From assembly GCA_032128375.1 (NCBI GenBank), contig JAQBGU010000084.1, positions 32,001 through 96,000 on the forward strand: 64,000 nt of DNA, given 5' to 3'. The position numbers and the translations under genes were made by a program. Under the pieces are notes generated by a model that was not told where the DNA came from, made no database searches, and saw only the letters and a program-made list of their open reading frames with translations. The DNA is from Deltaproteobacteria bacterium (GTDB lineage Bacteria; Myxococcota_A; UBA9160; SMWR01). This document shows, piece by piece, positions 9,701 to 55,029 of this stretch. Positions within the stretch are counted from its first letter, which is position 1, and the number at the start of each line of letters is the position of its first letter.

Positions 9701-11308
9701 CTAGTCATACACCGCATCGATATGCCAAGTCTTGTGGATGTAGTCCAGCCGTAGCCGGGACACGGTACCGTCGCTCGTCTGTATGTCGAAGCTGTCGTAG
9801 GCGAAGCGACCTTCGCGGGACCACCAGCTTCCGGTCGTGCGCCAGGGGCCGGCAAGGTGAACGACGTGGCCGTTCGCGATCGCGCTGCGAACGAACTCTG
9901 GAATGCCGCGTGATACGCGCACGTTGGCGCTCAGCGGGGGACGCAACGCGCGGATGGCCAGATTCCCCGACAGCGAACTCGGTGATCTGGCAGGGGTGTG
10001 GGCTGAGGTGCTGGCTGTGGTATTCGCCGAGATCCTAGATGAGAGATGGCGGGGCGGTTGAAAAGGTCCCATGCCAAACGCGTCGGGATCATGGCTGTCA
10101 GCTACCTGTGGTGAACCGATACGATCGCGGCCGCATAGGGCTTCGAGTTCTGCGAGCGTTCGCCCGAGCACGGCGGGGGCGGGGCCCGCTGGGCGAAACA
10201 AGTCGAGCTGGTCGTTTTCATAGGGGCAGCCGTCGGTCTCGAGCGTCACGGTCTCTACCGCAGCGCGAGGCGGTTGGGACTCGAGCGCGTGACAGGCCAG
10301 GCGCATGAGGACCCGCAGATCGAGGGTGGGGGCGGCCGCGCCAACGCGTCGGGTATCGCGGCCGCCGCCCTCCTGGTCGAGCGTAAGTGTCAACTCGTCG
10401 CATGCCATGTGGCGGGCTTCCAGGCGCGCAAGTAGGCGAGAGAGCAGGCCCTGCAGCACGAAGACGAGCGGTTCGAGGCGATCGAGCGGACACTCGAGGT
10501 CGATGGCTTCGGTCAACCGCGTAGAGCTGGGTACGGGAAGAGGTGTATGATGATCGTGACCCTGAGCGAGTTCGACCAGCTGCAGTACGCGTGGGCCCAG
10601 CCGGGTTCGCAGTGCGCGTCGTGGCAACTGCAGCAGATCGCGTACCGTGTGTATCCCGAATCGCGTCAGTGTTTCGGCTGTCGCGTCATCTGGATCCAGT
10701 ATGTCGATGGACAGCGGCGCCAGGAAGCTCGCTTCTTCGCCAGCTTTGATGATGCAGGTTCGACCCGAGCCGGCGTGCGAAACTGATCCCGATGGCTCCA
10801 TACTGCTTGAAAGAGTTCTTGAAAGCTGGCGCGCGGCGATGTGCGCAATGTTGCGCGAGGAGGAGATCGCGACCTGGCCGGGAAGCCCGAGTCGCTCCGC
10901 ACGCGCGCTGAGTGCCGCTGCGAAACCGGCTTCGGAGCGAAACAGGGCCTCGACGCCAGACGCGTCGAGGTAGACCGCGGCCTCCGACGCATAAGGGCCC
11001 GAAGTGCGTGGTGCAGAGTCGGCTCGTGGAGACACGCTGATCGCTGCGTCGAGCAATGTGGCGCGCGCGGCGGCTTCGATTGCTGGGGAAGCGACGCGAA
11101 CGATCAGCTCTGCACAAACCGCTCGCGCATGAGCGACCGAAGTCGAGCGACGGGCACCACGGCGTGCGGCTTCGGGCGAAACCGCGATGAGTTCGGCCCG
11201 CGGGCCCGCGGCCGTCACCACCGCCAGCGGCTGACCGATGAGTTCGGGGTGCGCACGCAACTCTGCCGCCAACGGCAGGTTGGGAATCAGTAGGCACGCG
11301 GTGCGCAT
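9701..11308 (-). CDS. imuB: ImuB, catalytically inactive Y-family polymerase homolog
   Basis: Y-family fold motifs (AVSPEAARRG, VYLDASG, RFGIHTVRDL) lacking the catalytic Asp/Asp-Glu; beta-clamp motif QLDLF; C-terminal 'AGPWRTTGSWW'. Confidence 0.88.
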   Translation of the reverse strand: MRTACLLIPNLPLAAELRAHPELIGQPLAVVTAAGPRAELIAVSPEAARRGARRSTSVAHARAVCAELIVRVASPAIEAAARATLLDAAISVSPRADSAPRTSGPYASEAAVYLDASGVEALFRSEAGFAAALSARAERLGLPGQVAISSSRNIAHIAARQLSRTLSSSMEPSGSVSHAGSGRTCIIKAGEEASFLAPLSIDILDPDDATAETLTRFGIHTVRDLLQLPRRALRTRLGPRVLQLVELAQGHDHHTPLPVPSSTRLTEAIDLECPLDRLEPLVFVLQGLLSRLLARLEARHMACDELTLTLDQEGGGRDTRRVGAAAPTLDLRVLMRLACHALESQPPRAAVETVTLETDGCPYENDQLDLFRPAGPAPAVLGRTLAELEALCGRDRIGSPQVADSHDPDAFGMGPFQPPRHLSSRISANTTASTSAHTPARSPSSLSGNLAIRALRPPLSANVRVSRGIPEFVRSAIANGHVVHLAGPWRTTGSWWSREGRFAYDSFDIQTSDGTVSRLRLDYIHKTWHIDAVYD

Positions 11309-11314
11309 GGCCGT

Positions 11315-12139
11315 TCAGGCAGCTTGCGAAGTGCGCAGTCGTGCTGTCGCGCAGCGCTGGATGGGGGCGGTGCGATGTCGAACCAGGGCCGCCTGAATCA
11401 CCAACCCTTCGAGTAACGGGGGAGTGCCGGTGAACTGGGATTTGCCAGCTGCGAGTTCGATCGCGACTTCGGCTGCGGTCCCCATACTGCGCTCTCGGGT
11501 CAACACGATCAGTGCTGTCCCTGTGCTCGCGGCGGCTCTGGCCAAACGGGGGCCCGTGGCCGGTGCGATGCGGAGGTTCGGGATCGCCAGGTCGAGTAGA
11601 ACCAGCGCGAAGCCGTGAGCTTCCAGCAGCCGTTCTGCACAGCGCAGTGATTCGTTGGTACCCGGTGCGCGGACCCACAGCACGCGATCGAGCTGGGTGC
11701 CCGCACGGGCGGCGGAAGCCGGATCGAACGCGTCCGCGCAGTCTACGAGAGCAGCGACTTCTCCCGCGCCTGTGGTCTGTGCCAGCAGTGCGAGAGTCAG
11801 CGAGGTACGGCCCGATGAAGCGGGGCCAGAAATTTCGCTCAGTCGACCCCGTGGAAACCCCGGCTCGCTGCCGCCCAACAGCTGGTCGATGTCTGGGAGG
11901 CCAGTCGGGAGCCCTGCCTCGAGGGATGAGCCCAGCGGTGGGCCACCGAGGCGAATTTGGGAGCCGAGATCGTGCAACAGGCTTTTTAGCGGGCTCGCTA
12001 GCGGGCTCGCCATTGGGCCCGTCAACGGGCCCAATAGCAGGTCCGTTGACGGGCCTTCCAACGGGCCTTCCAACAGGTCTTCCAACAGGTCTTCCGCGGC
12101 TGGCGCGGAACGACCCGTGTCCGAGGGGGAGCGGAGCAC
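11315..12139 (-). CDS. imuA: ImuA / RecA-like mutagenesis accessory protein
   Basis: 'PTGLPDIDQLLGG..GFPRGRLSEISGPASSGRTSL', 'DAFDPASAARAG..LDRVLWVR'; directly upstream of imuB; start codon uncertain. Confidence 0.85.
   Translation of the reverse strand: MLRSPSDTGRSAPAAEDLLEDLLEGPLEGPSTDLLLGPLTGPMASPLASPLKSLLHDLGSQIRLGGPPLGSSLEAGLPTGLPDIDQLLGGSEPGFPRGRLSEISGPASSGRTSLTLALLAQTTGAGEVAALVDCADAFDPASAARAGTQLDRVLWVRAPGTNESLRCAERLLEAHGFALVLLDLAIPNLRIAPATGPRLARAAASTGTALIVLTRERSMGTAAEVAIELAAGKSQFTGTPPLLEGLVIQAALVRHRTAPIQRCATARLRTSQAA
11976..12095. repeat. Ten degenerate 12-bp tandem units within the 5' part of imuA
   Basis: Units such as aacgggccttcc, aacaggtcttcc, aacaggtcttcc, agcgggctcgct; encodes EDLL-EDLL-EGPL-EGPS...ASPL-ASPL. 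Confidence 0.8.
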
Positions 12140-12147
12140 GGAAATAC

Positions 12148-12174
12148 TTTCGTCTTATTTTCGCCTTTCGTCAA
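12148..12174 (-). promoter_or_regulatory. Candidate repressor (SOS-box-like) direct repeat and -35 element upstream of imuA
   Basis: TTTCG at 12148 and 12159 (11-bp period), third copy at 12166; TTGACG on the minus strand at 12174-12169. Confidence 0.4.
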
Positions 12175-34811: not shown

Positions 34812-34946
34812 CTCGCTCGGCTTCAGCTGAGCGGGGCAGCTCCGAGAAGGAACAGCGTTCGGATTCACCGAGCGCTGGTGTCGGCATCGGCGAAAAGTGG
34901 CTCATCAGGCGGGCTGAATTCGCGCGTCGATCGGAGGGCTGTGCAC

Positions 34947-35963
34947 ATGGATAGGCGAACCATCGGGCGCTGGAGCGCGCAGGAATTGCGCGACCGAAGA
35001 GCCAAGGGCGTTGAGATCGTGGTCGTCGATGTTCGCAACGGCTACGCCCGCGCTTTCGAACCGTGTGAGATCCCCGGCACCTTGTGGCTGCCGCTATCGG
35101 AAGTTTCTGAACAGTCGCACCGCTTGTCCCGGAGCGCCGAGATCGTCACCTATTGCACCTGACCAGAGGATATGAGCAGCGCCCGTGCGGCGCTGTGGCT
35201 GAACGAAGAGGGGTTCGCCGTCCACGTCTTGCAAGACGGCCTCGGAGCCTGGAAGGAAGCGGGCTACCCGACGGCTGCCGTCGATCTCGATGAGCTTCCG
35301 ACGTTCGATCCTGAAGGCACCGGCGCCAAGACCCCCAACGAAACGGACAGAGCCGCGAGGCAGCACACCTCTGCGTTCCTCCCGGGGCTGGTCGAGAACT
35401 ACGTCAACAAGCACGATTTGCCGATGCGACGCGATCTGACGGTACTGTTCGTCGACATCGCCGACTCCACCCGTACCATCGTCGAGCGAACACCTTCTGA
35501 GGCGCTTGCCTTCGTCCAGCGATTCATGGGCATCGTGACGCAAGGCGCCCTCAACTACTGTGGGGACGTCAAGGATTATGAGGGCGACGGTGCGCTGCTG
35601 TACTTCGAAACCGTAACAGAGGCTACGCAAGCTGCGTTCTCGATTCGGCAAGCGCTTGCGAACGAGACGCCCGAAGTCGGCGATCGCCTTCGCGCTCGAC
35701 TCAGCCTCGACACGGGCTCCATTGTCATTGGGGTCATCGGCACACCGCTGCGGCGGTCCGTCGCCCTGATCGGCGAGAGCATCAACCTGGCGGCGCGGCT
35801 GTTAAAGGAAATCCCCCCCGGCGGCATCATCGCGACCGAGGCAGTAGTCCAACGACTCCGCGACGAGACACCCGCGCTGGCAGCGCAGTTCAGCGTGCTG
35901 AACGAGCCAATGACACTCAAGGGATTCGAAGAAAAGAAAGTCACCGCCTATCGGGCCTCGTGA
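34947..35963 (+). CDS. Rhodanese domain + class III nucleotide cyclase fusion with in-frame TGA (putative selenocysteine, residue 72)
   Basis: GGAGG RBS; VVDVR..IPG..IVTYCT[TGA 35160-35162]PEDMSSARAA..GF..LQDGLGAWKEAGYP is a continuous rhodanese domain across the TGA; then LFVDIADST, EGDG, INLAARL, LKG. Confidence 0.82.
35176..35196 (+). promoter_or_regulatory. Putative bacterial SECIS hairpin
   Basis: CAGCGCC-CGTGC-GGCGCTG perfect 7-bp stem plus flanking G-U; loop starts 21 nt after the UGA, with GU at loop positions 2-3. Confidence 0.65.
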
Positions 35964-53616: not shown

Positions 53617-53676
53617 ACCGCCTCGCAAGAATGAAAATGGCATCATGGAAGGGCACAGCCAAAGAGGAGGCCTTCG

Positions 53677-54469
53677 ATGGGACAACTCGACGACAAAATC
53701 GCAATCGTGACTGGAGGTGGCCGGGGAATCGGCCGCGGCATCGTATTTGCTCTCGCCCAGGCCGGCGCGGACATTGTCATCGCAGACGTGGATCTGGTGA
53801 GTGCAGAGCAGACCGCGAAGGAGGTCGAGGCGCGGGGACGTCAGGTGTTGGTGGTACGGCTCGACGTCACGAATGAAAACTCGGTCCGCGAAGGCACGGC
53901 TTCGGCGCTGGAACGCTTCGGTCGGGTCGACATTCTGATCAACAACGCTGGGGTCGTGCAGGACCACGTTGGCGCCGCCGTCGACCAGGACGATTTCGAT
54001 CGCTGCTTCCAGGTGAATCTGCGCGGCATCTGGACGATGACTTCGGCGCTCGCGCCGCATCTGCGTGAGCGGAAGTACGGCAAGATCGTGAATATTGCTT
54101 CGATTGCCGGCCGCAAGGGGGGCAGTGGCCTCGCGCCGTACTGCGCATCCAAGGCGGGAGCGATCAGCCTGACGCAAGTCGCTGGCGGCCGAGTTGGGAC
54201 CGGATGGAATCAACGTCGATGCGATCTGCCCGGGCCTGCTGTGGACACCCATGTGGGAAAAACTCGAGGGCATGATTCGCAATACCGACGACGCCGAGGT
54301 TGTCGACCAGCGCGCGGCCTTCGATGCCTTCATCCAGAAGAACTGTCCCCTACGGCGCGAACAGACACCTGAGGACATCGGCCACGCCGTGGTCTTTCTG
54401 GTATCGGATGCGGCACGCAACATCACGGGCCAGTCGCTCAACGTCGACGGCGGCATCGAGATGAACTGA
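53677..54469 (+). pseudogene. SDR oxidoreductase with a single +1 frameshift (may be a sequencing error)
   Basis: TGGGRGIG, NNAG, YCASK; one extra base near 54176-54178 separates LTQ from SLAAELGPDGINV..ITGQSLNVDGG. Confidence 0.8.
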
Positions 54470-54519
54470 TTCGAGCACTGCTCCCGAGTGTGCCGTCTTC
54501 GTGGGGCGTGAGTCGCCGC

Positions 54520-55029
54520 TCACGCGCCAACTGCGGACGAGAGCGCCTTCTCGAACAATCGAACCCAGTAGCCGTGCTCCTTTGCGCGGTCGAGTTCGCG
54601 GAAACCGAGATCTCGGTAGTAGGCGCGCAGTGCTTGGCTGCCGTCCCAGCAGTCCAGTCGCACGAGCGAGCGATCGGCGTCGAGCGCCCATTGCTGCGCG
54701 CGTTCAACGATTCTGTGACCGTGATTTCGACCGCCAATCGACCTGGCGACTGCGAGTTTTCGAAGGTAGACAGCCGGCTCCGGGTGGTCGTCCCACGCTG
54801 GGTAGGACGCGCGTCCGACAATGCAGCCACCCAGCACCACGTGGCCACCGCGCAAAACGATCAGGTCGCCCTCATCGATCCAGACGCGAAAGTTCTCGAT
54901 TTGGGCGCGGTTCGAGCCAGGCGGCCACTGCGCGATACCGCGCTCGAATAGCCACGTGCCGACCTCTTCGAGAACTTCGACGAAATTCGCCAGGTCCCCC
55001 GGCCCCGCGATCTCGAGCGTCAGTTCCAC
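54520..55029 (-). CDS. GNAT-family acetyltransferase
   Basis: YLRKLAV, VRLDCW, LRAYYRDLGF; GTG start inferred. Confidence 0.82.
   Translation of the reverse strand: MELTLEIAGPGDLANFVEVLEEVGTWLFERGIAQWPPGSNRAQIENFRVWIDEGDLIVLRGGHVVLGGCIVGRASYPAWDDHPEPAVYLRKLAVARSIGGRNHGHRIVERAQQWALDADRSLVRLDCWDGSQALRAYYRDLGFRELDRAKEHGYWVRLFEKALSSAVGA

Follow-up and report, generated by a model that had tools for sequence, protein, structure and literature searches.

A predicted selenoprotein that joins a rhodanese domain to a class III nucleotide cyclase across an in-frame TGA in a Deltaproteobacteria genome

Does a TGA that interrupts an otherwise continuous reading frame mark the end of a gene, or is it read as selenocysteine (Sec)? 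The question is raised by a locus in a stretch of 64,000 nucleotides (nt) from a Deltaproteobacteria bacterium (contig JAQBGU010000084.1 of assembly GCA_032128375.1, positions 32,001 to 96,000; hereafter, the window), in which two open reading frames (ORFs) that share one frame, 34878-35162 and 35172-35963, are separated only by a TGA (35160-35162) and by the three sense codons CCA GAG GAT. An original prediction, made from the letters of the window alone, had proposed that the two ORFs are a single gene, in which a rhodanese domain and a class III nucleotide cyclase are fused across a selenocysteine. We assign a probability of about 0.85 to this being the best explanation, that is, to one gene on the forward strand (34947-35963) encoding a predicted rhodanese-cyclase selenoprotein of 338 residues. 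Taken by itself, the identification of the product as a selenoprotein appears very probable.

The arrangement of the two ORFs and the length of the read-through product are confirmed by the sequence: translation from ATG 34947 proceeds through the internal TGA to a terminal TGA at 35961-35963 and yields 338 residues, with the context IVTYCT-U-PEDMSSARAA around codon 72. The start is supported by the N-termini of 8 close orthologues, which align with it, and a Shine-Dalgarno-like GGAGG (34933-34937) can be read 9 nt 5' of the ATG. Orthologues are collinear with the window protein from residue 1 to residue 336. As had been anticipated for standard annotation, the gene is split in the public protein collection, where fragments of 71 and 263 residues are stored as separate proteins and the read-through form is not present.

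The most direct evidence on the meaning of the TGA comes from the residues that homologues carry at the same position. Among the 193 genomes of the organism's order that were searched, with a homologue threshold of E<=1e-30, 14 contain a homologue: 10 have exactly one internal TGA, 3 are Cys forms without any stop, in which YCLC stands in place of YC(T/L)-TGA, and in 1 the homologue is interrupted by masked bases. A profile scan with one genome per species retrieved 79 public loci, 10 of which match the cyclase part only, while 69 cover residue 72; the codon in this column is TGA in 43 loci, TGC or TGT in 26, and no other codon occurs. Thus, the TGA does fall on a Cys-equivalent position, as originally proposed, and a residue such as Trp or Arg, which would have pointed elsewhere, is found in none of the 26 homologues without TGA, all of which have Cys. 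The motif that the original prediction had given, YCxCPxE, is not matched exactly by the Cys forms, in which the sequence observed is YCLC[SHNAKD]G[QE]. The TGA homologues come from several phyla and are 37-74% identical, with the frame 3' of the TGA conserved, and the conservation of the protein crosses the TGA (Y69, C70, S77, S78 and R80 are invariant). Together with the Sec machinery of the genome described below, this column is the basis on which the UGA at 35160-35162 (codon 72) is assigned as a predicted selenocysteine codon. The family is small: at E<=1e-30 it comprises 33 clusters (50% identity) among 1.84 billion representatives. A different genetic code, in which TGA would stand for Trp or Gly, was considered and rejected, as homologues have Cys at the site and 20 of the 44 Sec-form genes end with TGA (21 end with TAG and 2 with TAA, and one runs off the end of its contig).

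According to the titles of the records, several of which are mislabelled in the case of metagenome-assembled genomes (MAGs), the Sec forms belong to 'Deltaproteobacteria'/Myxococcota MAGs, Candidatus Binatia, Methylomirabilota/Rokubacteria and Tectomicrobia. The Cys forms are mostly from gammaproteobacteria of the Nevskiales and Salinisphaerales, among them cultured Solimonas, Sinimarinibacterium, Hydrocarboniphaga and Spectribacter, with a few from Myxococcota. In a quick IQ-TREE search with 66 rows, from which L071, L080 and L114 were left out for their short cover and L117 for a stop, two clades can be recognized: one consists of 36 rows, all of them Sec forms, and the other of 25 Cys and 5 Sec rows. 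Two sets of copies deserve a separate mention. A Salinisphaeraceae MAG copy (L117:3001-3987) contains a non-TGA stop in the stretch matched by tblastn, and may be broken or mis-assembled. L031 and L131, about 125 kb apart on G025:C1, are two partial copies, one an N-terminal half with YCL-U-TGE and the other a C-terminal half, each cut by a run of N.

In 13 of the 43 Sec forms a second TGA occupies codon 70, that of the catalytic Cys, so that the loop reads Y-U-T-U-P (U-x-U). Some of these copies sit on complete long-read chromosomes, and the well-supported branches of the quick tree force at least 4 changes of the U-x-U label. A stand-alone rhodanese-related sulfurtransferase with U-x-U has been described in Olavius algarvensis symbionts (Zhang and Gladyshev 2007, PMC1976440). 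As that protein is presented there, the 13 homologues resemble it in the second Sec at the neighbouring Cys, whereas the window copy differs from it in being C-x-U and fused to a cyclase; as far as that account goes, U-x-U is not new in kind.

Whether the organism has the means to insert selenocysteine can be read from the genome that holds the window (6.2 Mb in 249 contigs, 91% complete). The genome does not lack selABCD, an eventuality that the original prediction had raised against itself: we found selA (445.6 bits), selB (290.9 bits, with a cut-off of 242), selD (334 bits) and one tRNA-Sec gene, selC, recognized both by ARAGORN and by Rfam (68.7 bits, with a cut-off of 47). The selD gene (locus L018, G000:C140:3308-4234) has an in-frame TGA of its own in MDEIRLTSLVPAGG-U-ARKLG, followed by stem-loops; the TGA falls in GG-U-ARK, at the known GG-U-xxK site, and this predicted Sec-type selD is an internal positive control for the use of Sec in the genome. 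Judged by this gene content, the organism uses selenocysteine. Across the order SelA is present in 178 of the 193 genomes, including all 10 Sec-form and all 3 Cys-form genomes; tests of 5 U-x-U genomes (Binatia) found it in all 5, and those of 5 Cys-form genomes of Nevskiales and Salinisphaerales in none.

Downstream of the UGA, folding reveals a SECIS-like (selenocysteine insertion sequence-like) hairpin at 35176-35196, in which an 8-bp stem formed by 35176-35183 and 35189-35196 closes the loop CGUGC (35184-35188). The hairpin starts 13 nt 3' of the UGA, and its loop, of the form CG(U/G)G(C/U), begins 21 nt 3' of it. A stem-loop soon after the UGA, with a G in the apical loop, is thus present, as in a SECIS element; the spacing between UGA and SECIS loop is reportedly about 16-37 nt, a range attributed to Zhang and Gladyshev in 2005. 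Since GC-rich coding sequence folds anyway, we relied on position-specific counts of stem pairs instead of folding energies. In an ungapped alignment of the window with the 43 Sec-form loci (44 sequences), 85.1% of the stem cells hold standard pairs, compared with 78.9 +/- 0.8 in column shuffles, none of which (0/500) reaches the observed value, and with 20-58% for partners slid out of register. At pair 27-39, 22 sequences have CG, 14 have UA and 5 have UG, and none is unpaired; at pair 24-42 the counts are 27 for CG, 4 for GC and 2 for UA. Several of the compensatory changes are synonymous on both sides (for example, AGC->AGT paired with GCG->GCA). An uninterrupted 8-bp stem is found in 25 of the 43 Sec forms, and the best hairpin lies at the same position in 36 of them, while a stem of at least 7 bp is found in only 1 of the 26 Cys forms; for the window itself, 8 bp are reached by 3.95% of 2000 synonymous recodings. 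Relative to synonymous recoding, the mean z-score of the folding energy is -0.83 for the Sec forms and -0.13 for the Cys forms. The small Sec group of the other clade has an 8-bp stem in a different register, with a GGU loop, and a compensatory pair of its own (AGC/AGCU versus AGU/AACU). No hairpin of this kind was found behind the terminal TGA at 35961-35963, and an Rfam scan in evalue mode returned only a chance match to IRES_Bip (11.8 bits).

The TGA is also found in contigs assembled from sequencing runs. Both run X1 and run X2 have Logan contigs that extend across the whole region with zero differences, and overlapping contigs of run X3 cover it, likewise with zero differences; the DNA may, however, have come from these three runs. 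A strain variant that is about 97% identical, with 40 differences over 1371 nt, is present in run X4, from a different sample of the study; 24 changed codons are listed for it, of which 13 are synonymous and 11 non-synonymous, and both the TGA at 35160-35162 and the hairpin are unchanged. An assembly error was accordingly rejected as the source of the TGA, the X1-X3 contigs being in agreement and the X4 variant keeping TGA and hairpin. Nor is the TGA unique to this assembly, since it recurs in 10 of the 14 homologue-bearing genomes of the order and in 43 of the 69 public loci, besides the strain variant.

The domain that the TGA divides is a rhodanese (residues 10-105, 34974-35261), recognized by Pfam PF00581 with 35.3 bits (cut-off 22.2), by the match of a profile of 13 family members to the solved rhodaneses 1yt8, 6mxv, 3tp9 and GlpE (1gmx), and by an AlphaFold2 model, in which the local confidence score (pLDDT) of this domain is mostly 73-95. 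The YC of 3tp9 aligns on Y69-C70, so that the Cys70 codon (35154-35156) corresponds to the canonical position of the rhodanese catalytic Cys; in the model a helix begins at P73, placing C70-T-U72 at its N-terminus. Sulfurtransferase rhodaneses have a six-residue CX5 active-site loop. The window protein does not have a loop of this length: between the Cys and the conserved Arg/Ser, it is 2 residues longer than that of 3tp9.

Sec-containing rhodaneses were said to be known when the prediction was made, and this is borne out by an NCBIfam model and by two reviews. C-x-U rhodaneses are named among predicted selenoproteins in the parts consulted of a 2022 review (PMC9312934) and of a 2026 review (PMC13188914). 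The best NCBIfam match of the window protein is NF041203 (rhodanese_LYCAU, 'rhodanese-related (seleno)protein'), with 56.8 bits, below the cut-off of 115; a search of the genome with this model gives 52.9 bits, and no match in the genome lies above the cut-off. By NCBI's rule, the predicted protein is therefore a relative of this family and not a member of it. To judge by the name of the model (LYCAU; the window protein reads Y-C-T-U), the two would have in common the arrangement Y-C-x-U, in which Sec follows the catalytic Cys at a distance of two residues. The known form, of about 126 residues, stands alone, while that of the window continues into a cyclase. TsoB (rhodanese/DsbD, NF045694, UxxxxU) likewise combines a Sec-bearing rhodanese module with a further domain. 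Among the relatives, L130:103-729 (G035:C1) has a DedA-like membrane domain fused to a rhodanese whose loop, VCT-U-PSEASSAR, is nearly identical to that of the window; the same Sec-rhodanese module thus joins different partner domains. Both TsoB and the DedA-rhodanese differ from the window protein in that their partner domains are other ones, with no signalling enzyme among them.

The C-terminal half (residues 163-335, 35433-35951) is a class III nucleotide cyclase domain, with a match to Pfam PF00211 Guanylate_cyc of 31.1 bits (cut-off 21.9), and aligns best with CyaC (1wc0) and with the photoactivated BLUF-cyclases OaPAC and bPAC (4yus, 5x4t, 5m27). The alignment with CyaC 1wc0 matches D170, D214, N279 and R283 to their counterparts there; we take D170 and D214 to be the metal-binding Asp pair, and N279 and R283 to be the transition-state residues. 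The former are invariant in 13 sequences, and the latter are kept throughout the window's own clade. The cyclase fold and its catalytic core are therefore predicted to be intact, while the nucleotide specificity is not readable from the sequence. A variable linker (residues 119-156, 35301-35414; pLDDT < 50) separates the two domains, and its end holds a conserved F144-L145-P146 motif directly before the cyclase domain; the whole-protein AlphaFold2 model has both domains folded, with a mean pLDDT of 79 and a predicted template modelling score (pTM) of 0.61. The overall plan, in which a small N-terminal domain and a linker precede a class III catalytic domain with its metal-binding Asp and transition-state Asn/Arg in place, is that of CyaC and of the BLUF-cyclases OaPAC and bPAC. 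The window protein differs from these in its N-terminal domain, a predicted Sec rhodanese, and in having Asp/Ala instead of Lys/Thr or Lys/Asp. The same cyclase subfamily also occurs without a rhodanese: five paralogues (L079, L091, L095, L099 and L110) are 51-59% identical over residues 125-336 (match start 2811 in L099 and 3001 in the other four) and have an N-terminus of only 30-55 residues, which in L095, L099 and L110 contains a C-x-x-x-x-x-x-x-C-like pair (Q[HP]C[NK]E..WTCRQ). The MAGs of L079, L091 and L099 contain a Sec form as well (L052, L056 and L067, respectively). The existence of stand-alone cyclase paralogues, some of them in the same genomes, fits a modular design of sensor plus output.

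These results can be set against the other ways in which the TGA might be explained. The caveat attached to the original prediction was that the TGA might be a nonsense mutation, derived from TGC or TGT in a Cys-form rhodanese-cyclase gene. A single step would indeed suffice, the window was said to contain other broken genes, and one SDR-like (short-chain dehydrogenase/reductase-like) ORF in it does look truncated; a pseudogene, however, would hardly share its TGA with homologues in several phyla (43 of 69 loci, 37-74% identical), with both halves under protein constraint, nor have a covarying hairpin, Sec machinery in the same genome and a TGA kept in a strain variant. The comparative data contradict the caveat, and we regard this explanation as extremely improbable. 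Only slightly less improbable is the one implied by the public annotation, in which the locus would give two products, a 71-residue peptide and a 263-residue cyclase restarted at ATG 35172. Both fragments are stored as proteins, and GAGG occurs directly before this ATG, but at a distance of merely 2 nt; moreover, an in-frame start 4 codons after the TGA is present in only 2 of the 44 Sec-form genes, and a split at this point would halve the rhodanese domain (Pfam 10-105), both halves of which are conserved. Very small, too, is the probability that we attach to a UGA decoded by a near-cognate tRNA (Trp, Cys or Arg) rather than as selenocysteine. Low-level UGA read-through is common in bacteria; yet the alternative residue of the homologues is always Cys, the hairpin lies at the distance expected for SelB, 20 of the 44 genes use UGA as their ordinary stop, and wherever it was tested the TGA forms occur only in genomes with SelA (10/10 and 5/5), as opposed to 0/5 for the Cys forms of gammaproteobacteria.

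There remain several observations that weigh against a selenoprotein with a hairpin-assisted UGA and a working cyclase. As regards the hairpin, the folding energy after the UGA is weak (z = -1.74; 12 of 200 shuffles fold equally well, as do 12.5% of the window's synonymous recodings), the invariant bases of the loop are also set by the codon of the invariant Arg80, and some of the Cys forms nearest to the Sec forms have a 5-bp version of it. As regards the locus, conserved neighbours do not hint at a function: the flanks of the 69 loci contain no homologue of any ORF that lies within 3 kb of the window gene. As regards the protein, the structural model (with the pTM and linker pLDDT given above) offers no confident inter-domain contact, and Pro or His often replaces the transition-state Asn in the clade made up mostly of Cys forms. 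Finally, the base-specifying pair is Lys plus Asp/Thr in adenylyl cyclases and Glu plus Cys in guanylyl cyclases. The domain, which had originally been called complete, has a complete fold, but the canonical Lys/Asp(Thr) pair is missing from it, since D210 stands at the purine-specifying Lys position (K209 being one residue earlier) and A273 at the Thr/Asp position. The last two points also speak for the main live rival, according to which the protein is a real selenoprotein whose cyclase-like domain has no cyclic-nucleotide output, being a pseudo-enzyme or a nucleotide-binding or dimerisation module, while the rhodanese is a working sulfur/selenium transferase. Against this stand the invariance of the metal-binding Asp pair and the retention of Asn279 and Arg283 throughout the window's clade, and the rhodanese-free paralogues suggest that the domain has an activity of its own. 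We consider this rival unlikely, but with a clearly larger share of the probability than the three explanations discussed above.

If the gene does encode a rhodanese-cyclase selenoprotein, a mechanism can be sketched. The UGA at codon 72 would be recoded to Sec by SelA, SelB, SelD and tRNA-Sec, with the help of the 8-bp hairpin, giving a protein in which a rhodanese loop, C70-T-U72, at the start of a helix, is followed by a flexible linker of about 40 residues and by the C-terminal class III cyclase. The Cys/Sec pair could act as a covalent switch, either by carrying a persulfide or perselenide or by closing to a selenenylsulfide, which in U-x-U forms would be a diselenide; sulfane sulfur or oxidants, as may occur in sulfidic marine sediment, would be the triggers. 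Class III cyclases are homodimers with the active sites at the interface. The covalent state might be passed through the linker and its F-L-P motif to the cyclase dimer, and so change the synthesis of cyclic nucleotides. That a Sec redox or sulfane-sulfur sensor acts on the cyclase output in this manner, as the original prediction also supposed, seems to us somewhat short of an even chance. A wider formulation is more tentative still: this may be the first selenoprotein with a second-messenger output, in which the C-x-U switch (U-x-U in relatives) would respond to sulfane sulfur, to oxidants or to selenium itself and control the activity of the cyclase, whose product may be a non-canonical cyclic nucleotide.

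The surroundings of the gene add little to this picture. Neighbours recur only inside sublineages, and scans for promoters and terminators gave results at chance level. In the flanks of the Nevskiales Cys forms (L085-L119) common neighbours are found at 12-16 gammaproteobacterial loci, namely proteins of 338, 475 and 175 aa, the first with a haem-c-like CAGCH motif and the last with a CHCC motif; none of them is in the window. Of the 147 TGA-joined ORF pairs of the window, 12 were chosen by size, and none of these 12 has a Pfam domain across the TGA. In the SDR-like ORF at 53635-54948 (+), the Pfam adh_short match ends at profile position 163 of 195 and what follows in the frame seems unrelated, which a frameshift in the gene may explain and which agrees with the earlier remark on pseudogenes. 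At 9704-12154 (-) a RecA-like ORF (Pfam RecA, partial) is followed in frame by an impB/mucB/samB (IMS) polymerase-like ORF, and the two look like adjacent genes joined only by a stop, and not like a selenoprotein.

To our knowledge, nearly every bacterial selenoprotein described so far is a redox or metabolic enzyme. The Sec-rhodanese module is known, but its combination with a class III cyclase was not found in any paper or catalogue: full-text literature searches, a scope outside which lie supplements and subscription journals, returned no report of a selenoprotein cyclase, and the word 'cyclase' is absent from the main text consulted of PMC9312934 and PMC13188914. Since public collections hold only the two fragments and no paper or catalogue with the fusion was found, selenoproteome counts for these uncultured lineages of sediment and soil would be too low. 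Translation of the cyclase half would require the insertion of Sec at codon 72, so that the supply of selenium would gate the amount of a signalling enzyme. The Sec, double-Sec and Cys versions found in related bacteria amount to a natural experiment, with cultured hosts of the Cys form in Solimonas, Sinimarinibacterium and Hydrocarboniphaga; because all three are versions of one protein, the effect of Sec on a sensor is directly testable. If the interpretation given here is true, a cyclase joined to a Sec sensor domain would put signalling in direct connection with the chemistry of selenium and sulfur.

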